A stretch of DNA of 64,000 nucleotides from Armatimonadota bacterium (GTDB taxonomy: Bacteria > Armatimonadota > HRBIN16), in NCBI GenBank assembly GCA_963677485.1, contig OY781964.1, positions 2,571,288 through 2,635,287 of the forward strand, read 5' to 3'. A program made the translations under genes and the position numbers. This document shows, one piece after another, positions 33,614 to 45,869 of the stretch. A model generated the notes under the pieces. The model saw only the letters and a program-made list of their open reading frames with translations. It ran no database searches and was not told the origin of the DNA. The stretch's first letter is position 1, and every line of letters begins with the position of its first letter.

Positions 33614-34200
33614 AATCCACAGATGACACAGATTGCGCAGATTGGGTTGTGGTCTCACGCGAAGACGCGAAGGACTATACGGTCGACCTTCGCATCGGCG
33701 TCATCTGTGTCATCTGTGGATTGCCCTTCTCCTCGTGCCGATAGCCATCCGCCTTGGAGCAAGACCGGCGCGGTTAGGGAAAACCGCCCCGGACATAGGC
33801 AATTGAGCTATAGCGGTCGTCTCCCCTGCGCCGGAAGGGCTGAACCACGAATTCGGAATTGTCTCACGCGAAGACGCGAAGGATCATACGGTCAACCTTC
33901 GCATCTGCGCCATCTGTGGATTGTCTTTCCCCTCGTGCCGATGGCCATCCGCCTTGGAGCGAGACCGGCGCGGTTAGGGAAAACCGCCCCGGACATAGGC
34001 AATTGAGTTATAGCGGTCGCCTCCCCTGCGCCGGTCGGGCTGAACCACGAATGAACACGAATTCGGAATTGACTCACGCGAAGACGCGAAGAGTGTACGG
34101 TCAACCTTCATATCTGCGTAATCTGCGTAATCTGTGGATTGTCCTTCCCTTCTGCCTTCGCGTCTTCGCGTGAGACTTGACCGGCGGTGTCGTCTTCCGC
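33614..34200. repeat. composite tandem repeat, about 210-bp unit and about 2.6 copies, built from family-A and family-B MITE fragments
   Basis: Units begin tcacgcgaagacgcgaagg at 33655, 33867 and 34073. Each contains ccttcgcatc...catctgtggattg and gaccggcgcggttagggaaaaccgccccggacataggc. The array ends with the inverted copy ccttcgcgtcttcgcgtga at about 34165. Confidence 0.6.
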
Positions 34201-34272: not shown

Positions 34273-36168
34273 ATGCAGAGCCTACCGCCAGAGGAGTTGC
34301 CAGAGATGAAGAAGCCGCAACAGATTGCCCCCAGTATCTATATGTATACCGACTCCTGCAACTGCTACGCGCTGGTGTCTGGTGATAGCGCGCTGCTGAT
34401 CGACCCTGGTGAGGGCGGCATCATCGACCACCTGAAGACGCTGGGCGTGAAGAGGGTGGACTGGGTGCTGCATACGCACGCGCACCGAGAGCTGGCCGGG
34501 GCCGACGAACAGCTGATCCGAATGGGCGCGAAGGTCGCCGTGCCGGAACGTTCGCGCGCGTTTTTCGAGCAAGCCGAGGAGCTGTGGCAAAAGCGGCACA
34601 CCTACTTCACATTCGCCTACGCCGAGAAATATGCCTTGCCCCTGCGCAACATCGCGGTGAGTGCGGAGCTGAGCGGCGGCGGACGGTTCCTCTGGAACGA
34701 GTATGAGCTTCGAATCCTCAGCACACCCGGCCACAGCGAGTTTGGCGTGAGCCTGATTCTGAATCAAGGCAGCCAGCGAATCGGCTTCACCGGAGACCTC
34801 ATGGCCGCTCCGGGTAAGATATGGGAGTTTGACAGCCTGCAGACCGGCTATGAGGAGTTCATACAGGGTCCCGAGCTGGTGCGCGTGCCGGAGCTGCAAG
34901 CGAGTCTGAAGGCGCTGGCGAAGCAGGAGCTCATGTTGATGCTTCCTGCGCATGGGGAGCCGATGAAGAGTCCAAACAGTGGGATGATGCGGCTAGACAG
35001 GCAGCTCACCCGGCTGGTCGAGAACGCCAAAGAGACAAGGTATTTCGACGGTGGTTTTGATCCTGTGCCGGAGGTGATCGCCATTGGCACCTGCGCCATC
35101 CAGTATTTCATCCCAGACGGTCAAGGCAACTGCGTGATGATCGACGCCGGCTTCTACGACTGGGACGGCGGGCGCATCAACCTGTTCGAGAAGATGAAAG
35201 AGTACCCTGAGATCAAGAACATCGAGATCGTGATCCCCACGCACATCCACTCCGACCATGTGGCACTCTGCCGCGCCATGCGTCACCGCTACGGCGCGAA
35301 GCTCTACGCACATGAGTGTCAGGCGGACATACTGGCGCGGCCCGAGCGGTATTTCGTGCCGTGCCTATGCAATCAGCCCATCACCGTGGACCGCGTGTTC
35401 AAGGAGGGTGAGAGCTTCACCTGGAGCGGTATGAAATTCAGCATGTACCACTTCCCCGGGCACACCTACTGGCATCAGCTCACCGTGCTGGAGGTGAACG
35501 GCAAGAAGATCGCCTTCACCGGCGATGCGATTGACGATTTCGACCATGTGCGCAGCATCGACACCTTCAACTACAACCCCATCGGCGAGCATGTGGGCGC
35601 CAACCGCTGCGTGGACCTGCTGGAGCAGATCAACCCCGACTACCTCTGCACAGGCCACTGGAGCATCCACAAGTGGAAGCCCGAGTATGTGAAGGGGATG
35701 CGCGACTGGGTGAGCCGTCACAACCGGCTGATCACCCAGATGAGCGCGCAGGCCGACCCAAACCTGAGCTACCATATCCGCTGGGCCGACCTGCTGCCCT
35801 TCCGGAGCGTGCTGCAGCCAGGCGAAAAGAGGAAGTTGAACGTGAAGCTGCTGAACCACCTGCCCACAGTGGGTCAGTTTGAGGTCAAGCTGGAGCTGCC
35901 CGAAGGCTGGAGCGCGAAACCGGCCGTTGCCCACCTCAGCCTCCCCGCCAAGGGCAGTGCTGAGCTTCCGTTTGAGGTCACCGCCCCACGGCAGGCCAAG
36001 CCCATGCGCTACATGGCCGGGGTGAACGTGGTGCTGAACGGTCAGGCTTACGGTGCCATGGGACTGGGCTGCCTGGACATCGGCGAGGACTGGAGTATCG
36101 AGAACCGCGACCCCAACCAGGTGCCCGGTGTCAGCCAGCCGGACTACGGTTTTCAGGCCAGCAGCTAG
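34273..36168 (+). CDS. tandem metallo-beta-lactamase-fold hydrolase (two MBL domains plus a C-terminal beta-sandwich)
   Basis: First domain has LHTHAHRE, a degenerate HxHxDH. Second domain has VIPTHIHSDHV, a canonical HxHxDH. 631 aa. Confidence 0.65.
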   Translation: MQSLPPEELPEMKKPQQIAPSIYMYTDSCNCYALVSGDSALLIDPGEGGIIDHLKTLGVKRVDWVLHTHAHRELAGADEQLIRMGAKVAVPERSRAFFEQAEELWQKRHTYFTFAYAEKYALPLRNIAVSAELSGGGRFLWNEYELRILSTPGHSEFGVSLILNQGSQRIGFTGDLMAAPGKIWEFDSLQTGYEEFIQGPELVRVPELQASLKALAKQELMLMLPAHGEPMKSPNSGMMRLDRQLTRLVENAKETRYFDGGFDPVPEVIAIGTCAIQYFIPDGQGNCVMIDAGFYDWDGGRINLFEKMKEYPEIKNIEIVIPTHIHSDHVALCRAMRHRYGAKLYAHECQADILARPERYFVPCLCNQPITVDRVFKEGESFTWSGMKFSMYHFPGHTYWHQLTVLEVNGKKIAFTGDAIDDFDHVRSIDTFNYNPIGEHVGANRCVDLLEQINPDYLCTGHWSIHKWKPEYVKGMRDWVSRHNRLITQMSAQADPNLSYHIRWADLLPFRSVLQPGEKRKLNVKLLNHLPTVGQFEVKLELPEGWSAKPAVAHLSLPAKGSAELPFEVTAPRQAKPMRYMAGVNVVLNGQAYGAMGLGCLDIGEDWSIENRDPNQVPGVSQPDYGFQASS

Positions 36169-36316
36169 CGTGTGGGATGGTGGGGGTAATTGGCCTACTC
36201 GTCGTAGCTGTCTTGTAGGGTATTTGCTACCCACCGGCGTAACCCGGCGGGCATTCCGGGTATCTAGTGGCTTACCATCTCCGGTATCATCACACCAAGC
36301 CATGTGCTATTGATAG

Positions 36317-36535
36317 TCCGGCACCCACGAAGTGGGTAAGATTCATTATAGCCAGGGGTGAGCGAAGCGATACCCCTGGTAAAGGTTGCACCTTCTTACC
36401 CCGAAGTGGGTCGAACCATGTCGGCACCACAGAAGGCCCACGTTCGTGGGTAAATGATGTTGGGCTGCCTTCCACGGGTTACGCTTTCGCTCACCCGTGG
36501 CTATAATGAATCGCACCCGCTTCGGGGTGCCCGGA
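36317..36535. repeat. structured repeat, family C copy 2 (long imperfect palindrome)
   Basis: ccggcacccacgaagtgggtaagattcattatagccaggggtgagcgaagcg ... cgctttcgctcacccgtggctataatgaatcgcacccgcttcggggtgcccgg. The arms are imperfect reverse complements of roughly 100 bp. It shares its core with 9014-9170. Confidence 0.5.
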
Positions 36536-36704
36536 CAGTGCAAAACACATTCAGCAGCCTGATTCTACCGCCACCCATTACATACCACGTGTTGTTATGC
36601 ACACTCCTTTCACTTCGCATTGCCCCCCTTGACATATCGCATGAAGGAATCGCTATCAAGGCTGTCGAAACAAATGCTATGATACCCATCACGAGACAAT
36701 TCCA

Positions 36705-37673
36705 ATGAACTGTATTCCAATCAATATCACGATGTTGGCATCCGTGTTGGTGGCATGTCTGCTGGTTCCAGCATTCATGCTCATGGCTGCGAGGCGGGTA
36801 GTAGCACGAACGTTAATGCCGGAAGACAAGCGGTACTACGCAGAGATATGGTGGATGTGCCTCTATTGCGCTCTGCCTAACTTGGCACTACTATATGGAT
36901 TGATTGCTTTTGCCTTCTCCATCACGGTCAACACGTTCAACATGCTGCAGTCACAGTTACTGTTGGACCTACCGGCCATCGTATGGTTTGTTCTATGCTA
37001 TCGAAAAATGGCTAATCTGCGAGCCAGCCTTGTTCCTGACACAGAATACAAACAATATGCTCCCAAATGCGCAGCACTCAAGTTTCGTGGATATGCTTCT
37101 GTATTGCTGTTAATGCCGTTTGTCATGGCAGTATCTGCAGTTATGATCGGATCGAATGATGATTTTACATTCTCTGTGCTGGTGAGTTTCGGTTTGTCTT
37201 TGGCGTATATCATTCTTATGTATATCTTCGTGGTCCGTTACATCCCACCGTTATTCGACCGTATCATGCCTGCATCTGAAATGGAGATGTTGAAGAATAA
37301 ACTAGCAGAGGCCAACCGCCTACTCAACCAGAACCTGCCAGACGGTCATATCCCCGTTAAGCTGGAGATCATGAGGATGATGCATTTCAAAGACTCCTTC
37401 CAGAGTGTTAGTGTCGACATGATATCCGAAAAACGCGTTAGTGTCAGCCTCCTTGGCCTGAAGCGGCTTGATGAGAATGAGCTGTTGTTTCTGTCACTGA
37501 GCGGAGCTTTTCGAGGCATATCTATGAAAAGCCAGGTTCTAGCGGACCAGCGCGCTCTGGCCATCACCGCAGACCGCCCCGCGGCGATTTCGTCCTTGAA
37601 GAAGGAGCTAGCGACCGCCTTTAAAGAAGTGCGTCAACTGCAGAAGCGTATCAAGGCTTTGGAAGTGATATGA
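36705..37673 (+). CDS. membrane protein, paralog 1 of an M48/M56-like pseudo-peptidase family (no HEXXH)
   Basis: Multi-TM N-terminal half. The C-terminus has LDENELLFLSLSGAFRG, positionally like the dElEaVlAHElsH motif but without His or Glu, and ADQRALAITADRPAAISSLKKEL, like the HtpX/BlaR1 C-terminal E..AD...tGdp...AL.kL helix. Confidence 0.55.
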   Translation: MNCIPINITMLASVLVACLLVPAFMLMAARRVVARTLMPEDKRYYAEIWWMCLYCALPNLALLYGLIAFAFSITVNTFNMLQSQLLLDLPAIVWFVLCYRKMANLRASLVPDTEYKQYAPKCAALKFRGYASVLLLMPFVMAVSAVMIGSNDDFTFSVLVSFGLSLAYIILMYIFVVRYIPPLFDRIMPASEMEMLKNKLAEANRLLNQNLPDGHIPVKLEIMRMMHFKDSFQSVSVDMISEKRVSVSLLGLKRLDENELLFLSLSGAFRGISMKSQVLADQRALAITADRPAAISSLKKELATAFKEVRQLQKRIKALEVI

Positions 37674-37740
37674 AACAGCTGCCATTGGCAATCACGGCTG
37701 TCGAAACAAGAGCTATGATACCCATCACAGGACAAAACCT

Positions 37741-38691
37741 ATGAACTCAGAAATCTACACACTAGTGGGATGCCTGCTGTTACCGATCACGTTGGTGATC
37801 GCAGCCAAGCAGTCCTATATCAACGCCGTGTCCGATGAAGACAGACGGTATTTTACCGAAAACTGGCGAACGGGTATCAACAAGGTACTGCAATATGCGG
37901 TCATGCCTTACGGTATAACGTTGTTCTTGATAGACTTAGACCCCTCCAGGCATTCTATGGGCAGATTTGCCATTGCTCTAGCACTACTGGGGCTTGTGGT
38001 TCTCATAATCTGTTACCGCACAATGGCCAAGATGAAACACAGCCTGACGCCGGAAACAGAGTATAGCAAGTACGAACCTCGGGTGAAACTGATCAGCTCT
38101 GTGGTAATGGCGATTTACATTCTATCTACTCTTTCCGTAATGGCAATATGTATACATTTTGCCGACTCGATAGATGATCCCATACTCTTGATGCTGGCTG
38201 CGATCGGTATGCTTGTGGCGATCTGTGGTTCACTGGCTATCATCGTGGACCGCTACGCAATATGGTATCGGGACCGCATCTTACCAGCCTCTGAAATGGA
38301 GATGCTGAAGAGTAAGCTGGCCGAAGCCGATCATCTGCTTAACCAGCACCTGCCAGACGGTCATATCCCCGTTAAGCTGGAGCTCATGGAGTTCATGATG
38401 GGTTTCAAGGACTCTTTGCTGTGTGTCAGCGTCGATATGAAATCGGAAAAACGCGTTAGTGTCAGCCTTCTTGGCCTGAAGCGGCTTGATGAGAATGAGC
38501 TGCTGTTCCTGTCACTGAGCGAAGCCTTTAGAGGCGTCTCAAACAAAAGCCAGATAGCGGCTGACCAGCGCGCTCTGGCCATCACTGCTGACCGTCATGC
38601 GGCTATTTCGGCTCTGAAAAAGGAGCTGGCCACCGCATTCAAGGAGGTGCGTCAACTGCAGAAGCGCATCAAGGCGTTGGAGGTAATATGA
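37741..38691 (+). CDS. membrane protein, paralog 2 (C-terminal about 140 aa nearly identical to paralog 1)
   Basis: ILPASEMEMLKSKLAEADHLLNQHLPDGHIPVKLE...DENELLFLSLSEAFRG...ADQRALAITADRHAAISALKKELATAFKEVRQLQKRIKALEVI. It is preceded by the same roughly 45-bp upstream element as paralog 1. Confidence 0.55.
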   Translation: MNSEIYTLVGCLLLPITLVIAAKQSYINAVSDEDRRYFTENWRTGINKVLQYAVMPYGITLFLIDLDPSRHSMGRFAIALALLGLVVLIICYRTMAKMKHSLTPETEYSKYEPRVKLISSVVMAIYILSTLSVMAICIHFADSIDDPILLMLAAIGMLVAICGSLAIIVDRYAIWYRDRILPASEMEMLKSKLAEADHLLNQHLPDGHIPVKLELMEFMMGFKDSLLCVSVDMKSEKRVSVSLLGLKRLDENELLFLSLSEAFRGVSNKSQIAADQRALAITADRHAAISALKKELATAFKEVRQLQKRIKALEVI

Positions 38692-39983
38692 AAAAGCAGA
38701 TATTGGCCATTCTTCCAGCACTGGGGGTCATGGTGATTACCTGGGGGGCACCAAGGCTGCTGAACTATGTTCATCAGTTGAACACGCCGTCTATTGTTGG
38801 TCCCATGGTTCCGTATGGGGTGCCGGACGCGCAGCTGCCTCCTCCACCAGATGGTATGATGCCCGCACCCGCCGGTGATTCAATACCTGGCAATGTGCCA
38901 ATGCCGTATCCTGGTGATGCCAAGATGTCCCACCCCACAACCGGATCATTCCCAAACCTGCAAATCAACTGGGTGTTGATATGGGTTGTGGTCGCTATAG
39001 AACTAGGACTATTTGGCAGATTGATATGGGCTGTCACACAACACCGATCTGAGCTTCCTGGCCATGCCCTATTCTGGGTTGTAAGCCAGGCGATTTTATC
39101 TGCATTTTTGAGTCAATCCTCCGTCTTCGACGTCATGGCTCATGGGATACTCCGGCCGATTGGCTTCTGCTTGATCGCTATCTCAATGGCAGGCACGTTG
39201 GTTGCGCTCAGCGAACTCATTATAAGGAGGCACATGCTATTTGGTGATGATGTTGTTGAAGTGCTGATGCATTTTGACAACCACACCGGGACGTCTTTGA
39301 TGTTGATGTATTTCTGGCTCATCCCGATGTTGAATGCCGGAATGTATTGGATACTGAGTATCCAAGTGATTTTCACGATCGGTGTGCAGATATGGGTTTG
39401 GCTAAGCTCAGATGCTTTACGAACATCGCTACGGCGCAGAGTGGACCCAGCGGCGTTTGACGTGCTTGAACAGAGCATCGCCAGGCTGCGCATATCGATG
39501 AGCAACCACTATCCAGGTAGACATGTCGATATGATGGCAAACAAAGAAGGCGACCACATTATCTCTTCGATGTCTCACCTAGATGGTAGTATTTCGGTGA
39601 GTGTGGCGGCGTTGCAGCAGCTCACCGACGAGGAAATGCTGGTGCTTTCGGCGATGCAAGCGGTGCGGCCTTTTTCCTATCGGTTACTCGATATACCCAA
39701 CACGATGACGTTCATGTTGGTAGGGATAGCTGTGATTGTATCAGATGGTCTATCCATGTTCTGGCTTATGTTGGTGCTGATACCGGTGCTCATGTCCGAA
39801 TACTACCGCCGGAATCTAGCTGTGGCAGCCGACCGGCGGGCCATTGACCGGTTGAACATGGAGAAGACCGCAGTGGCGGTGCTGCAAAAGCAGATTGAGG
39901 GCTCGACCGGTGAGGTTCGCAAGGGGCTGCTCATCCGTGCAGGTGCCATCTTCAAACACGGCGGAATTCCGTTGACTGAGTAG
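38688..39983 (+). CDS. membrane protein, paralog 3 (more divergent; same degenerate M48-like C-terminus)
   Basis: Its start overlaps the stop of paralog 2 (ATGA). C-terminus reads LTDEEMLVLSAMQAVRP ... YYRRNLAVAADRRAIDRL. Confidence 0.5.
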   Translation: MKKQILAILPALGVMVITWGAPRLLNYVHQLNTPSIVGPMVPYGVPDAQLPPPPDGMMPAPAGDSIPGNVPMPYPGDAKMSHPTTGSFPNLQINWVLIWVVVAIELGLFGRLIWAVTQHRSELPGHALFWVVSQAILSAFLSQSSVFDVMAHGILRPIGFCLIAISMAGTLVALSELIIRRHMLFGDDVVEVLMHFDNHTGTSLMLMYFWLIPMLNAGMYWILSIQVIFTIGVQIWVWLSSDALRTSLRRRVDPAAFDVLEQSIARLRISMSNHYPGRHVDMMANKEGDHIISSMSHLDGSISVSVAALQQLTDEEMLVLSAMQAVRPFSYRLLDIPNTMTFMLVGIAVIVSDGLSMFWLMLVLIPVLMSEYYRRNLAVAADRRAIDRLNMEKTAVAVLQKQIEGSTGEVRKGLLIRAGAIFKHGGIPLTE

Positions 39984-39998
39984 AGCCGTCGTGATTCT

Positions 39999-41579
39999 GT
40001 GTTCGCCCTGTGTTTATACGCCAGTTGGAAGGTTGTTGAACCAGCCAGTTTCGTCCGTAAAGGAGACATCATGCCGCGTAAAATGTTGATTCTGCTGCTC
40101 TGCGGGGCGATGATGCATTACTTCCTCGGGTTCATACCAAGGGGCATCGTGCCCAAGGATGTGAACCATCTGCTATCAGAGCAAATCAAGCAGATAAAGG
40201 AGGGTTACCGGCCGCCGGCTGTCATGCCAAAAAGCTGGCTGGTCATTACTGCAGGTAGCTCTTATCGAACGCTGCTTTACCTAAGCGAAAGCAATCCCGA
40301 CCAGCAAGCCGTTGAGCGCGCGTTCACAAAGATGGGTGCGCTGCCTGGCGAGGTCACGTCCGGCATGAGCGGCCGCCGTTACGTGATGCGATGGCACCAC
40401 CAGTGGTCATACTTTGGCCGGTTATATGCATCCACAGACCTGTATCCTGAGAATCTCCGCCTTCGGTTTGTGCGTGCCATGGGGCTGTCCGCACAAACCC
40501 CAACGATACCGATGATGGTCTGCGTAGACAAATGCGCCGCGCTGGATCCTAAATCGTATGGCTACGGCGAGTCGGGCAATGAGTTGATGGTCGTTAATGG
40601 GAAGTTCGTCGCAGATGAGGTTCTGAATATCAGCCAGTGGATTGACTGGTACCAATGCATATTCTTCGTGGCGTTTGTGATCGGGTTTGTGTGGGATATG
40701 CTGAAATGGCGAAAAAATCATGACAAACGGTCGAATCTACAACTGCCATTGATGCAGCACGTGAAGATATTTAGGCAGACAACAAGCATGGTATTGGTCG
40801 TGATGTTCACATTTCTAAACCATAATGGATATCATGAGTTGTTTGGCAACGGGCTTATAGATATGTGGGCAGGTGGGACGCGAAACATATTGTTGGGGTT
40901 AGTTTTATTTTCACCGATCCTGTGTTATGTGTTGGCAGCGGCGCCGATACGATACCACCTCAAGGCTGACCTGTCGAAAGCGGTATCACAGCAGCACGAG
41001 CGATTTCCAATCCTTCAAAAGACACTTTCTAACATAATATACAAGCGATCGAAACAGCTACGGCATGAAGACTACATCCTGGCAAAGTGTGACAGCCTCG
41101 ACCTGATGGGAGTTCTGCTTTCAGTCGACCACAGCAGGAAGATCGTGTTCGTGCCGCCAATGGCACGGTTGGGTATGGATGTCGCCCAAATTGACTTCTG
41201 GATCACGCGAGCACTTCAGGACCCTCACAGTCGACGCAACTACGACATGGCGGTCGGCTTATGCCTACTCGCCGCGGGCGGTTTCACGCAGATTATGGGA
41301 TACCGGACAGCATCCATCATACTGCAGGTTGTTTTTTTGGCCATTGTGTTTCTGTGGATCGGTGGAAGGTGGGGTATTGAGACGGTCAGGAACACCCGTG
41401 CCGACCTCGCTGCCATCGCGGTAACAGGTGACCCAGAAAGTGCCAAGCGGGCGATCAACCGGCTGTTTGGCAACGGCAAGACCGGTGCGATCGAAACCCC
41501 CAAACGCATACTCACCATCGATGCGAAATACCCACCCGCTGCGAAGGCTGTCGAGAAGGTGCTTGAAGCCGTTCCGTAG
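39999..41579 (+). CDS. signal-peptide membrane protein with periplasmic N-domain and degenerate M48/HtpX-like C-terminal region, paralog 4
   Basis: Signal peptide MPRKMLILLLCGAMMHYFLGF. An extracytoplasmic domain of about 190 aa, then TM helices, then RNTRADLAAIAVTGDPESAKRAINRL (compare the HtpX motif REFHADAGSAKLTG...ALQRL). No HEXXH anywhere in the protein. Confidence 0.55.
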   Translation: MFALCLYASWKVVEPASFVRKGDIMPRKMLILLLCGAMMHYFLGFIPRGIVPKDVNHLLSEQIKQIKEGYRPPAVMPKSWLVITAGSSYRTLLYLSESNPDQQAVERAFTKMGALPGEVTSGMSGRRYVMRWHHQWSYFGRLYASTDLYPENLRLRFVRAMGLSAQTPTIPMMVCVDKCAALDPKSYGYGESGNELMVVNGKFVADEVLNISQWIDWYQCIFFVAFVIGFVWDMLKWRKNHDKRSNLQLPLMQHVKIFRQTTSMVLVVMFTFLNHNGYHELFGNGLIDMWAGGTRNILLGLVLFSPILCYVLAAAPIRYHLKADLSKAVSQQHERFPILQKTLSNIIYKRSKQLRHEDYILAKCDSLDLMGVLLSVDHSRKIVFVPPMARLGMDVAQIDFWITRALQDPHSRRNYDMAVGLCLLAAGGFTQIMGYRTASIILQVVFLAIVFLWIGGRWGIETVRNTRADLAAIAVTGDPESAKRAINRLFGNGKTGAIETPKRILTIDAKYPPAAKAVEKVLEAVP

Positions 41580-41584
41580 CGGTG

Positions 41585-41935
41585 CTGATGCATGCGGCGG
41601 TTTGCCTTTATTTAACCACGAATGGACACAGATGAACGCGGATACCGGAATCCAACGCAAAGGCGCAGAGGGGCAAAGAGCGCAATGGTTCAGTTCGAAT
41701 CGCGGACAAAGCCGACCACCCAGCACGGTCATATACCTTTGCGTCATTGCTTCTTGGCGTCTTTGCGTTGAATCCCGTCCGTGTAATCCGTGGTTCAGAC
41801 AATTTGTAACCACGAATGGACACGGATAGACACGAATGGACACAGATGAACGCGGATACCGGGAATCTAACGCAAAGGCGCAGAGGGGCAAAGGGCGCAA
41901 AGTTGCTGATGACCGCATCCGGTTCTTGACAAGCC
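41585..41935. repeat. cluster of family-A-related MITE copies
   Basis: Repeated aaccacgaatggacacagatgaacgcggataccggaa, acgcaaaggcgcagaggggcaaag and gtccgtgtaatccgtggttcagac motifs. An almost identical cluster follows the next paralog at 43545-43990. Confidence 0.55.
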
Positions 41936-42034
41936 GGAAATTGCAGGTTAACCTTATCCTTAGTAAACGTATGTAGTGGTGTATATTCATGAGACAAGAT
42001 CACATTCACCAATACCGAAAACCAAGAAGCCATT

Positions 42035-43540
42035 ATGCCGCGTAAAATGCTGATCCTGCTGCTCTGTGGGGCTCTAATGCATTACTTCCTCGGGTTCATG
42101 CCGAAGGGTATCGTGCCCAAGGATGTGGATCATCTGCTGTCTGAGCAAATCACGCAGATCAAAGCAGGTTACCAGCCGCCAGCGACAATGCCGAAAAACT
42201 GGCTGGTGATTGCCGCCGGAAGCTCCTATCGAACCCTGTTTTACCTCAGCGAAAACAAGCCCGACCAGCAAGCCGTTGAGCGCGCGTTCACAAAGATGGG
42301 TGCACTGCCAGGCGAGGTCACCGCCGGTATGAGCGGTCAACGTCATGTGATGCGATGGCACCACCAGTGGTCGTACCTGGGCCGGATATATGCTTCGACA
42401 GATCTGTACCCTGAAAATCTCCGCCTTCGGTTTGTCCGCGCCATGGGGCTGTCCGCACAAACCTCTACATTGCCGATGCTGGTGTGCGTAGACAAATGCG
42501 CCGCGCTTGACCCACCACAATATATCGACAGCGCGAACCGCGATGAGTTGATAACCGTGCAAGGACCGTTCGTCGCGGGCGAAGCGTTGAATATCAGCCA
42601 GTGGATCGCCTGGTGGCTGTGGCTTGTGTTGGCAATATTTATGTTTGCGTTCATTTGGGAGATGTTGGCACCGCGTGAACATGACAAACGGTCGGACCCG
42701 AAAATGTCGCTGATGCAGCATGTGATGGCCTTTAAGCAGATAACAAGCGCTGTTGTAGTTGGGCTGTTCCTATTTCTGAACCATGATGGACTTCAAGAGA
42801 TGCTTGGCAACGGGCTAGTCGATCTATGGGCGGGTGGGACGCGAAACATATCGTTAGGATTAGTTTTATTTTTACCGATCGCGTGTTTTGTGTTGACTTC
42901 GGTGTCGACAAGATATCGCCTCAAAGCCGACCTGTCGAAAGCGGTATCACGGCAGCACGAGCGACTTCCACGCCTGCAAAAGACCCTCGCGGAGATCGTC
43001 TACAAGCGATCGATGCAAATACGGCATGATGACTACATCCTGGCAAAGTGTGACCGTCTCGACCTGATGGGAGTTCTGCCCTCAGTGGACCATAAACGGA
43101 AGATCGTGTTCGTGCCGCCGATGGCGCGGCTAAGCATGGATGTCGCCCAAATTGACTTCTGGATCACGCGAACACTACAAGACCCTCGCAGCGGACGTAA
43201 TTGGGATATAGGGATCGGTCTTGGCGTGCTCATCGCAAGCGGTGTCACGCAGATCATGGGATACGACAACGCCTCCCTCATACTGCTGCTTGTTTTTTTG
43301 GCCATCGTGTTTCTTTGGGTAGGGGGCAATTGGGGTTATGAAGCGGCCAAGAACACTCGGGCTGACCTGGCTGCCATCGCCGTGACAGGCGACCCCGAAA
43401 GTGCCAAGCGGGCGATCAAGCGGCTGTATGGTTATAGCAAGAACGGTGCTAAGGAGACACCGAAGCGTATACTCGCCATCGATGTGAAATACCCGCGCGC
43501 TGCGGAGGCCGTCGAAGAGGCAGTCGAGGCTGTTTCGTAG
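42035..43540 (+). CDS. paralog 5 (about 75% identical to paralog 4, estimated by eye)
   Basis: Same signal peptide and domain order as paralog 4. C-terminus reads RADLAAIAVTGDPESAKRAIKRLYG. Confidence 0.55.
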   Translation: MPRKMLILLLCGALMHYFLGFMPKGIVPKDVDHLLSEQITQIKAGYQPPATMPKNWLVIAAGSSYRTLFYLSENKPDQQAVERAFTKMGALPGEVTAGMSGQRHVMRWHHQWSYLGRIYASTDLYPENLRLRFVRAMGLSAQTSTLPMLVCVDKCAALDPPQYIDSANRDELITVQGPFVAGEALNISQWIAWWLWLVLAIFMFAFIWEMLAPREHDKRSDPKMSLMQHVMAFKQITSAVVVGLFLFLNHDGLQEMLGNGLVDLWAGGTRNISLGLVLFLPIACFVLTSVSTRYRLKADLSKAVSRQHERLPRLQKTLAEIVYKRSMQIRHDDYILAKCDRLDLMGVLPSVDHKRKIVFVPPMARLSMDVAQIDFWITRTLQDPRSGRNWDIGIGLGVLIASGVTQIMGYDNASLILLLVFLAIVFLWVGGNWGYEAAKNTRADLAAIAVTGDPESAKRAIKRLYGYSKNGAKETPKRILAIDVKYPRAAEAVEEAVEAVS

Positions 43541-43544
43541 CTGT

Positions 43545-43990
43545 GCCGATGAGTGCGGCGGTTTGGTTCCATTTAACCGCGAATGGACACAGATAGACAC
43601 GAATGGACACAGATGAACGCGGATACCGGGAACCCAACGCAAAGGCGCAGAGGGGCAAAGGGCGCAATGGTTCAGTTCGAATCGCAGACAAAGCCGACCA
43701 CCCAGCGGTCATTTACCTTTGCGTCATTGCATCTTGGCGTCTTTGCGTTGAATCCCGTCCGTGTAATCCGTGGTTCAGACAATTTGTAACCACGAATGGA
43801 CACGGATAGACACGAATGGACACAGATGAACGCGGATACCGGGAACCCAACGCAAGGGCGCAGGGGTGCAAAAGCGCAAAGGTTCTGTTCGAGCCGCGGA
43901 CATAGACGACCATCCAGCGCGGTCATATACCTTTGCGTCATTGCTTCTTGGCGTTTTTGCGCTGAATCCCGTCCGGTTCCCCATACACAC
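43545..43990. repeat. cluster of family-A-related MITE copies (duplicate of 41585-41935 with an extra unit)
   Basis: Same motif order as the upstream cluster, with additional acgaatggacacagat repeats. Confidence 0.55.
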
Positions 43991-44057: not shown

Positions 44058-45662
44058 ATGAGGTTCTTTGCCGTAATGATAGCACTGTGTAGCTGCGCTG
44101 CGTTGGCCCAGACGCAAAAGCCGTTCCAAGTGGGTATCGAGCTGCCCACTATGTTGCCAGTCGACCCCACCGTGGAGCTGATGTTGAAGGACCTTGGGGT
44201 GAACTACCTCAACTTCTATACATTCAACAACTACGGCCCGCCGGAGCAGGATGCCATGGCGGTGTATGACGCGCAGGCGGCATTGGCGAAGCGGCTGGGG
44301 GCGAACTACCAACTGGCGTGCCACCACATGGATGTGCCCGAGGCGGTGGTGCGCAAGGCGGCGCAGGACCCGCTCTGCCAAGGTGTGATCATTGATGAGT
44401 TGGAGCACATCCGGCTGCTGTGGCGAGTGGCGGGACCCTCTGCGGCGGTGCTCGCTGACCCAGCGACCTTCACCGACCTCTATGATGCCCACGACAAATC
44501 GGTGGCGGCCTGGCAAAAACTGGCTGATAAGTATCGCGGATACGGTCTGACCAACTTCAACAGCACGCACGTTTGGCCGGTGCTGCTCTCGGTGGCGGCG
44601 AAAGGCGGATGGAACCCCACGCCAAAAATCTGCAAGGAGTTCTACTCGCCGGTTTCGCTTGCCATCGGCATGGGCGCTGCGCTGCAGTATGAAAAACCGC
44701 TGATGGTAGACTGTGACCTGTGGTTCTGGGATCTGCTGCCCGGTCACACGCCCGAGGAGTATCGCAGCAATCTGCTGCTGGCCTACTGGAGCGGTGCGGA
44801 CGGCGTATATACCGAGGGTGCCGGGTTCAACCTGTATCCTGCGGGTCGGCAGGGGTTTCCACACACCCTCATGGCAAAGCTGACCGACACGGAGTATTCG
44901 CTCACAGCCCATGGCGAGATACTGCGCTGGTTCATTAAGGATTATCTGCCGAAGCACCCGCGTGCCTGGAGCTTCCGCGACATCCAGCCGGATGTGGCGA
45001 TCATCCGGTTCGAGGATAGCTGTTTTGGCCAGCGTTTCAGCAATATGCCGGACACGCTGTATGGCAGCGAGAAGCTGAAGAGCGATGCCGACACCGAGGC
45101 CTGGTTCCAGATTTGGAACGTGCTGACGGGTGGCAAGACCGGCCGAGACGGTATCAGCATGTTCCGAGCCACCCAGGGCATGTTTGGCCTGGAGTATGTT
45201 CCGCACACCACGCGGCGCGACAGCTACCTCACCCGGCCCATGATGTCGGGTTCGCACAACTTCTGGACGCCCCTGAACAACGTGGTGGTGTTCGACGACA
45301 CCGTGACCGCGGAGCGTCTGGGGCAGATCCCCTGCCTGTTCCTCACAGGCAAGCGGATCAGTGATGAGACTTGGCTGGCGGTTCAAGAGCGTGTGAAGCA
45401 GGGGGCGACTTGCGTGATCTGGGCTCCGCTGGCGAAGAAGCTGGGGCTGGAACCCAAGGGCGACATCACTGAACTGACCATGGGCAAGGGCAAGATGATC
45501 ATCACCACCGATTTTGGGCTGACACCGGTCACCACCGCCGTGTGGAGCTTCATCGGCCGCGCCGACCAGATCCGCTACCGCTTCAAGCAGGGTGAAGTGG
45601 TGTTTAAGACGCTCGACGAAAACAAGGTGGATGTTCAGACCACGGTGTATCCCAACCCGTAG
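44058..45662 (+). CDS. secreted hypothetical protein (possible glycoside-hydrolase-like TIM barrel)
   Basis: Signal peptide MRFFAVMIALCSCAALAQ. 534 aa. Ends with TAG, directly followed by a GC hairpin. No family assigned. Confidence 0.45.
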   Translation: MRFFAVMIALCSCAALAQTQKPFQVGIELPTMLPVDPTVELMLKDLGVNYLNFYTFNNYGPPEQDAMAVYDAQAALAKRLGANYQLACHHMDVPEAVVRKAAQDPLCQGVIIDELEHIRLLWRVAGPSAAVLADPATFTDLYDAHDKSVAAWQKLADKYRGYGLTNFNSTHVWPVLLSVAAKGGWNPTPKICKEFYSPVSLAIGMGAALQYEKPLMVDCDLWFWDLLPGHTPEEYRSNLLLAYWSGADGVYTEGAGFNLYPAGRQGFPHTLMAKLTDTEYSLTAHGEILRWFIKDYLPKHPRAWSFRDIQPDVAIIRFEDSCFGQRFSNMPDTLYGSEKLKSDADTEAWFQIWNVLTGGKTGRDGISMFRATQGMFGLEYVPHTTRRDSYLTRPMMSGSHNFWTPLNNVVVFDDTVTAERLGQIPCLFLTGKRISDETWLAVQERVKQGATCVIWAPLAKKLGLEPKGDITELTMGKGKMIITTDFGLTPVTTAVWSFIGRADQIRYRFKQGEVVFKTLDENKVDVQTTVYPNP

Positions 45663-45697: not shown

Positions 45698-45733
45698 CAA
45701 TCCACAGATTACACAGATTACGCAGATTTGTGG
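45698..45733. repeat. solo family-A TIR-like fragment
   Basis: aatccacagattacacagattacgcagatttgtgg. Confidence 0.4.
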
Positions 45734-45869
45734 GGCGATGGGACGTGACGTCTGGCGTAGGGGCGGGGTCACCCCGCCCACCACACCCCAACCCGTAGGG
45801 GCAGGCCCCCGTGCCTGCCCCATATAACCATAGCCCCATGGACGGGGTCACCCGCCCCCCAAATCCAGC

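Follow-up and report, generated by a model that had tools for sequence, protein, structure and literature searches.

The stretch of DNA analyzed here, in its full length of 64,000 nucleotides called the window, originates from an Armatimonadota bacterium (GCA_963677485.1, contig OY781964.1, positions 2,571,288 to 2,635,287 of the forward strand) and hosts a tandem array of five genes encoding predicted membrane proteins, designated P1 to P5. A first-pass annotation had described them as five paralogous, apparently catalytically dead relatives of the M48 metalloproteases, and the present analysis follows up this description. The list of open reading frames (ORFs) agrees with the five plus-strand genes given there; only the start of P4 is corrected below.

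36705-37673, + strand: P1, 322 amino acids (ORF list, hydropathy, family alignment, residue map)
37741-38691, + strand: P2, 316 amino acids (ORF list; tandem paralog of P1)
38688-39983, + strand: P3, 431 amino acids (ORF list, hydropathy, profiles, residue map)
40071-41579, + strand: P4, 502 amino acids (ORF list; start at ATG 40071 preferred)
42035-43540, + strand: P5, 501 amino acids (ORF list; tandem paralog of P4)

P4 had been annotated from GTG 39999, the start chosen by the ORF finder, which is unlikely; the most likely start is ATG 40071, because the similarity to P5 begins just 11 nucleotides (nt) 5' of that codon. The stop codon of P2 and the ATG of P3 overlap by 4 nt (ATGA).

According to hydropathy analysis, P1 and P2 have approximately five predicted transmembrane (TM) segments ahead of a soluble C-terminal region that is ~145 residues long and devoid of a TM hairpin. 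P3 starts with a signal-anchor, continues with a Pro-rich segment and a multi-TM block, and ends in an HtpX-like domain (~243-431), into which a two-helix TM hairpin (~336-375) is inserted. P4 and P5 begin with a hydrophobic segment, after which come a non-membrane domain of ~165 residues, ~3 TM segments, a soluble segment and, beyond it, a hydrophobic hairpin and a tail. The hydrophobic N-terminus and the non-membrane stretch before the next TM segment are in agreement with the extra extracytoplasmic domain ascribed to this pair before. A TM hairpin separates the equivalents of the two ligand-bearing helices in P3, P4 and P5, and none is found there in P1 and P2. By the positive-inside rule, all five proteins are predicted to expose the soluble segment after their last N-terminal TM segment to the cytoplasm.

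On the level of short motifs, the two that had been reported as common to P1, P2 and P3 occur verbatim in P1 and P2 (LDENELLFLSLS[GE]AFRG and ADQRALAITADR) but not in P3, the counterparts of which are divergent (LTDEEMLVLSAMQAVRPF and AADRRAIDRL). P4 terminates in a NTRADLAAIAVTGDPESAKRAINRL helix, and the end motif NTRADLAAIAVTGDPESAKRAI[NK]RL was recovered verbatim in both P4 and P5. As noted earlier for HEXXH, none of the five proteins contains this motif, nor does any contain HXXEH.

Kinship among the five proteins and proposed kinship with HtpX

Pairwise links were determined by BLASTP and links between families by profile-profile comparison with hhalign, with P1/P2 representing the P1 family next to a P3 family and a P4/5 family. 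The only firm BLASTP links among the five are P1-P2 (54.5% identity) and P4-P5 (73% identity). P2 and P3 share 23% identity over 173 residues (32.7 bits), and no BLASTP link connects P1-P3 with P4/P5. On profile level, the P1 and P3 families match with a probability of 90% (E 1.6e-6; 86% and E 5.5e-6 with more sequences), showing P1/P2 and P3 to be homologous. The P4/5 family is linked only weakly to the other families, by its C-terminal 50 residues (E 0.003-0.013). Comparing TM-free segments against decoys with permuted column blocks, P4/P5 and P1+P3 scored 14.3 in the first soluble segment (null 10.4+-1.6, reached by 2/150 decoys) and 20.9 in the C-terminal segment (null 11.5+-2.9, 1/150), a tie that is only suggestive. 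The five paralogs of the first-pass annotation are, consequently, better described as two recent pairs and one distant relative (P3), with P4/P5 only probably related to the rest.

HtpX (MEROPS M48B; E. coli b1829) is a zinc metalloprotease anchored in the membrane, where it serves the quality control of membrane proteins. As M48 references served a four-sequence alignment of E. coli HtpX, YcaL, BepA and LoiP and 80 HtpX-type GTDB loci (30-89% identity), the HtpX reference profile consisting of 81 sequences; the P1+P3 query profile of nine sequences was aligned without reference to M48. Against the four-sequence E. coli alignment, hhalign picked the 'E..AD' helix as expected, without reaching significance. 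Against the 81-sequence profile, the P1+P3 family scored 45.3 (E 2e-5, probability 77%), with a core match of P3 220-319 to HtpX 33-135. At lower mact the match runs end to end (P3 207-427 to HtpX 17-292) with the order of motifs being kept. This order, common to the family profile and HtpX, comprises a strand-rich segment, an 'L..L..eE' turn, the helix bearing HEXXH in HtpX, a TM hairpin, the 'E..AD' helix and a C-terminal 'R-I..L' helix. Individually, the P3 family matched with E 0.0025, the P1 family with E 0.0023 (HtpX 216-244) and P4/P5 with E 0.017 (HtpX 219-250).

Four controls with reversed query or template profiles scored 17-23 (E 0.02-0.19). A null distribution was obtained from 120 decoys in which blocks of 15 columns of the HtpX alignment had been permuted (21.5+-3.3, maximum 30.4); none of these reached the score of P1+P3 (41.2) or of P3 alone (31.3). 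Composition artefacts were addressed by comparing TM-free segments: P3 243-332 against HtpX 56-150 scored 22.8 (null 10.1+-2.0, 0/150 decoys) and P3 368-431 against HtpX 214-293 scored 21.2 (null 14.1+-2.8, 4/150 decoys). Upon addition of P4/P5, the resulting 14-sequence profile rose to 50.6 (E 4.1e-6, probability 87%, 0/60 decoys), matching P3 282-425 to HtpX 98-290, and the C-terminal halves alone scored 46.4 with and 38.9 without P4/P5. Since the inclusion of unrelated sequences should weaken the HtpX match rather than sharpen it, P4/P5 are probable members of the same superfamily. On the basis of these comparisons we consider an M48 ancestry likely for P1-P3, and for P4/P5 we favor it with less assurance.

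Mapping of the family alignments onto HtpX provides the residues occupying its catalytic and zinc-binding positions:

HtpX H139 equivalent: M in the P3 family, S in the P1 family, R in the P4/5 family
HtpX E140 equivalent: Q/L in the P3 family, G/E in the P1 family, T/A in the P4/5 family
HtpX H143 equivalent: R/S/H in the P3 family, R/T/C in the P1 family, D in the P4/5 family
HtpX E222 (third ligand) equivalent: A/S/Y in the P3 family, Q in the P1 family, N in the P4/5 family

The equivalent of HEXXH reads S-G-A-F-R in P1 and M-Q-A-V-R in P3; the AD motif is located at residues 280-281 of P1 and 381-382 of P3, the E222 equivalent of the latter being Ala378. The replacement of the ligating residues, claimed before, is thereby borne out in the residue map, all four positions having changed to non-ligand residues that differ by subfamily. 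Conversely, the residues equivalent to V120, A225, D226 and R282 of HtpX are V, A, D and R in 14/14 proteins, with L242 being matched by L or I; A225, D226 and R282 belong to the few positions invariant in the four E. coli M48 paralogs. This retention of structural residues, together with a loss of catalytic residues through replacements differing by subfamily, is the pattern expected of a pseudo-enzyme lineage. Within the P1+P3 domain, the Asp equivalent to D226 is the sole universal acidic residue and neither His nor Glu is conserved, which rules out a hidden alternative metal site in P1-P3. With members sharing at least 68% identity, the P4/P5 family is too shallow for a conserved metal site to be read from it.

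A low-confidence model of P3 places a helix at 254-274, strands at 279-284 and 290-295 and a short helix at 306-311, followed by the helix equivalent to the HEXXH helix (314-325), the hairpin helices (336-352 and 358-389) and two terminal helices (392-405 and 409-425). In the model, this order of secondary structure elements is as expected for an M48 domain. A Foldseek search of the P3 model against 350,542 PDB chains returned human ZMPSTE24 (M48A) on ranks 1-3, at non-significant values (E 0.14-0.21, template-modeling score 0.24).

Duplication, distribution and genomic surroundings

The P1/P2 and P4/P5 pairs are shown by the repeated DNA to have arisen by recent tandem duplication including flanking sequence. 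The elements involved are:

36652-36711, + strand: leader 5' of P1, duplicated 5' of P2 at 37688-37747 (85% identical)
41617-41892, + strand: ~213-bp repeat 3' of P4 (unit starts 41617 and 41831)
43493-43975, + strand: ~213-bp repeat 3' of P5 (unit starts 43598 and 43811)

The P1/P2 duplication unit spans ~1.02-1.04 kb including the 60-nt leader; since the leader was copied in front of both genes, the unit took in the 5' region. The P4/P5 unit of ~1.96 kb consists of the gene plus the downstream repeat. Within the window, the ~213-bp repeat family is restricted to the sites 3' of P4 and P5, and it recurs 3' of the P4-like gene in the metagenome-assembled genome (MAG) GCA_054606775.1 (L002 10912-10940). 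Of the repeat cluster previously assigned to the end of each pair, the copies directly after P4 and P5 are thus present, while P2 runs directly into P3.

The whole family counts 14 members among ~15 billion public proteins, and all traceable ones belong to the Armatimonadota. Word-indexed searches of 5.8 billion clusters yielded just five, five and two members for the three families. When 1.84 billion representatives were searched exhaustively with HMMER, the P1+P3 profile brought in only two further proteins, P0013 and P0014, both remote and P3-like. A scan of Joint Genome Institute (JGI) metagenomes for further P4/P5 relatives found none. The traceable members are distributed over three related Armatimonadota assemblies and short Logan contigs, and in the databases they are annotated as 'hypothetical protein' at most. 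As a side observation, the region downstream of P0013 (L009 1593-11442) harbors five genes in tandem that encode 889, 725, 724, 724 and at least 712 residues; several overlap by ~10 nt and none has a significant Pfam domain, a layout resembling another lineage-specific tandem expansion.

Ratios of nonsynonymous to synonymous substitution rates (omega, Nei-Gojobori) amount to 0.32 for P1/P2, 0.27 for P4/P5 and 0.17-0.32 for orthologs in two related genomes, in comparison to 0.09 for the flanking metallo-beta-lactamase (MBL)-fold gene and 0.05-0.06 for the neighboring gene of a 534-residue orphan protein (D534). By these ratios the five genes are shown to be real and to evolve under purifying yet relaxed selection.

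The genomic context was compared in the source genome, GCA_942492855.1 and the MAG GCA_054606775.1. On one side the locus is flanked by uvrD and the double MBL-fold gene, on the other by D534, an M42 peptidase and the dcw cluster (mraZ onward). At the syntenic site, GCA_942492855.1 carries only a P1-like and a P3-like gene, overlapping by 4 nt (L004), with a P5-like gene located ~0.7 Mb away. The corresponding site of the MAG holds a P2-like and a P4-like gene; the latter (L002 9287-10843) shows a TGG to TGA change at the conserved Trp codon 193 (WID*YQ versus WIDWYQ) and was split in gene calling into two ORFs (192 and 280 residues), representing either a pseudogene or an assembly error. In none of the three genomes did we find a conserved regulator (sigma factor, BlaI-type repressor or other) or a conserved toxin, bacteriocin, secretion or defense gene adjoining the array genes. 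Scans of the five proteins and their neighbors against PADLOC, PHROGs, Pfam and NCBIfam gave no meaningful match for P1-P5.

Upstream of the array, the MBL-fold gene (window 34273-36168, + strand, 631 residues) encodes two MBL-fold domains plus NPCBM_assoc without a signal peptide, and its best NCBIfam match is a class B beta-lactamase core with 79 bits, below the cut-off of 100 bits. In each of the three genomes, it occupies the syntenic position directly 5' of the P1-like gene. An analogy to a beta-lactamase/BlaR1 operon, considered on account of this gene, was rejected because the protein has no signal peptide and does not reach any lactamase cut-off, and because a repressor is absent. Between the MBL-fold gene and P1, a spacer of 536 nt contains an imperfect inverted repeat (36302-36366 / 36486-36550) with 65-nt arms, 78% complementary and 119 nt apart.

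Downstream of the array, D534 (window 44058-45662, + strand) is strongly conserved and has a signal-peptide-like N-terminus; searches in Pfam, NCBIfam, PADLOC and PDB returned nothing. In each of the three genomes its gene follows a P4/5-like gene at a distance of 0.5-7 kb, also where the latter has been relocated, and it forms a tandem pair in both relatives (L001 16340-17947 and 18219-19769; L002 11161-12765 and 12986-14590). D534 may be functionally linked to P4/P5. A further tandem repeat of ~200-209 bp, distinct from the ~213-bp family, lies upstream of the MBL-fold gene (window 33637-34152, 2-3 units, 89% matches), with a partial inverted copy (window 45698-45738, 33-41 nt, 80-94% complementary) situated 11.5-12 kb away just past D534, so that both bracket the entire MBL-to-D534 block. 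Rfam gave no match in the window between 33 and 46 kb, and scanning for promoters and terminators yielded nothing informative.

Interpretation and alternative explanations

We interpret P1-P5 as a lineage-restricted membrane superfamily derived from an HtpX-type (M48) metalloprotease, in which all four catalytic and zinc-binding residues were lost, and assign this reading a probability of roughly 0.6. The earlier description as dead M48-like proteins is upheld at profile level, including the loss of HEXXH and of the Glu ligand. With catalytic positions replaced, an omega of 0.17-0.32 and homology traced at profile level, the five proteins present themselves as pseudo-enzymes; the motifs defining membership of the M48 peptidase family are lacking, and HtpX-like pseudo-peptidases appears to be the most suitable name.

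Several observations weigh against this interpretation. In Pfam and NCBIfam, no M48 or M56 match was obtained for P1-P5 at E<=10; sequence and profile searches of the PDB gave chance matches only (e.g., Fab light chains) and no M48/M56 protein, and the HtpX hidden Markov model (HMM) scored the family sequences at no more than 8 bits (hmmsearch --max). The hhalign probabilities of 77-87% are below the usual comfort level of 95%, and the family profiles are very shallow (Neff 1.3-2.5). In the decoy test, P1 alone scored 22.6, reached by 20/120 decoys and not significant, and P4/P5 alone 19.5, reached by 59/120 and thereby at noise level. The AlphaFold2 models attained a mean confidence (pLDDT) of 54.1 and a pTM of 0.33 for P3 (nine-sequence alignment) and a pLDDT of 38.6 for P5 (five-sequence alignment). 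For P0013 and P0014, the two remote P3-like proteins, there is no partner of the P1 type, and the non-catalytic function proposed below is modeled on analogues.

The strongest of the alternatives is that P1-P5 are lineage-specific orphan membrane proteins not derived from M48, the HtpX likeness being due to chance or convergence of amphipathic helices next to TM segments, with P4/P5 forming an unrelated adjacent family. Besides the missing curated HMM and PDB sequence matches and the noise-level comparison of P4/P5 with M48, the confinement to few genomes and the full-length comparison of P4/P5 with P1+P3, which barely exceeds reversed controls, speak in its favor. However, the P1+P3 score beats all 120 permuted and four reversed controls with TM-free segments matching in the right order, the addition of P4/P5 strengthens the M48 match, and the positions invariant in 14/14 proteins coincide with A225, D226 and R282, which are invariant in the E. 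coli M48 paralogs. The best Foldseek matches were likewise to an M48 protease, albeit with non-significant values, and we regard this alternative as unlikely.

BlaR1 and MecR1 (M56) are sensor-transducers with a cytoplasmic zinc-protease domain, and the first-pass annotation had suggested signal-transducing or anti-sigma-like sensors of this kind. Accordingly, the outer domain of P4/P5 would sense an envelope signal, and the pseudo-protease domain would bind or release a transcription regulator that remains uncleaved. The ~165 non-membrane residues between the first and second hydrophobic segments of P4/P5, the cytoplasmic location predicted from the sequences for the pseudo-protease domain, as in BlaR1, and the MBL-fold gene upstream in all three genomes would fit this proposal. 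Nevertheless, the gene context lends it no support, as no conserved sigma factor, BlaI/MecI-type repressor or other regulator stands beside the genes in the three genomes, and P1/P2 are devoid of an extracytoplasmic sensor domain. Furthermore, Pfam and NCBIfam recognize no penicillin-binding or other sensor domain, and the MBL-fold protein, without signal peptide, remains under all beta-lactamase cut-offs, rendering a transducer function improbable.

CPBP/Abi-type membrane protease homologs confer bacteriocin immunity. That P1-P5 are comparable, fast-diversifying immunity or conflict proteins, their duplication and narrow range reflecting an arms race, would agree with the tandem duplications, the flanking repeats, the very narrow taxonomic range and an omega 3-5 times that of neighboring genes, but is very improbable given an omega well under 1, a locus syntenic between housekeeping genes (uvrD, dcw cluster), no adjacent toxin, bacteriocin, secretion or defense gene, and no PADLOC or PHROG match.

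Following the interpretation as HtpX-derived pseudo-peptidases, P1-P5 would be unable to bind a catalytic zinc or to hydrolyze peptides. Most likely, a polypeptide-binding groove would be kept, allowing action at the membrane without catalysis. In the quality control of membrane proteins or in envelope biogenesis, they may serve as a holdase, an adaptor or a regulatory subunit, possibly in conjunction with an active protease, and P4/P5 could connect the module to the envelope through their extracytoplasmic domain. The 4-nt overlap of P1-type and P3-type genes is kept in two genomes and therefore suggests co-production, perhaps of a hetero-oligomer. In analogy to known pseudo-proteases, a specific model of cytoplasm-facing, membrane-anchored, non-catalytic polypeptide binders is put forward tentatively. 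Its extension to a hitherto undescribed pseudo-protease family in three architectures (minimal, hairpin, extracytoplasmic-domain), with P1/P2-type and P3-type proteins forming hetero-oligomers that, without catalysis, trap substrates or regulate membrane proteolysis or envelope assembly as bacterial counterparts to FtsHi or iRhom, is conceivable but doubtful.

If true, the array would represent an HtpX/M48-derived bacterial pseudo-protease absent from every curated library searched. Dead protease homologs acting in regulation or as chaperones have been studied extensively in eukaryotes and plastids (iRhoms, FtsHi); to our knowledge, few have been characterized in bacteria. The presence of three architectures within one operon-like array would provide a natural system for the role of the M48 scaffold after catalysis was lost. 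Moreover, an apparent orphan family would be tied to a known fold by means of profiles with explicit null models, even though the practical reach is limited to a few uncultured or little-studied Armatimonadota genomes.

Comparison with known systems

The closest resemblance is to HtpX, with which P1-P5 share, by prediction, N-terminal TM segments followed by a cytoplasmic-side domain and the succession of helix, strands, 'GLL..m..dE' turn, active-site helix, hydrophobic hairpin (P3, P4 and P5), 'AD' helix and 'R-I..L' helix, along with equivalents of V120, A225, D226 and R282 that are invariant in the family. They differ from it in the replacement of H139, E140, H143 and E222 in all families, in extra N-terminal TM segments and domains, and in falling below detection by Pfam PF01435; P1/P2 additionally lack the hairpin, having just ~10 residues between the two helices.

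Ste24/ZMPSTE24 (M48A) is a seven-TM zinc protease with an intramembrane chamber. By prediction, the present proteins resemble it in being multi-TM with an M48 domain inserted between late TM helices, and it provided the three top, non-significant Foldseek matches of the P3 model (E 0.14, template-modeling score 0.24); unlike Ste24, P1-P5 are without catalytic residues. With BlaR1/MecR1, P4/P5 share, by general description, the predicted pairing of an extracytoplasmic domain with a cytoplasmic gluzincin-like domain. In contrast, P1-P5 possess neither HEXXH nor a Pfam M56/transpeptidase domain, neither a C-terminal penicillin-binding sensor nor an adjacent BlaI-type repressor, and the extra domain of P4/P5 is N-terminal.

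Functional analogues are provided by the FtsHi pseudo-proteases (PMC8197885), the rhomboid YqgP acting as adaptor towards FtsH (PMC7231995) and BepA with its protease-independent, chaperone-like role (PMC8423444). FtsHi and YqgP belong to other protease families (M41 and S54, respectively) and BepA is still catalytically competent, whereas P1-P5 are known from sequence alone. Common to all of them would be a protease scaffold kept under selection after catalysis was lost or bypassed, with substrate binding or an adaptor function as the role proposed for P1-P5.

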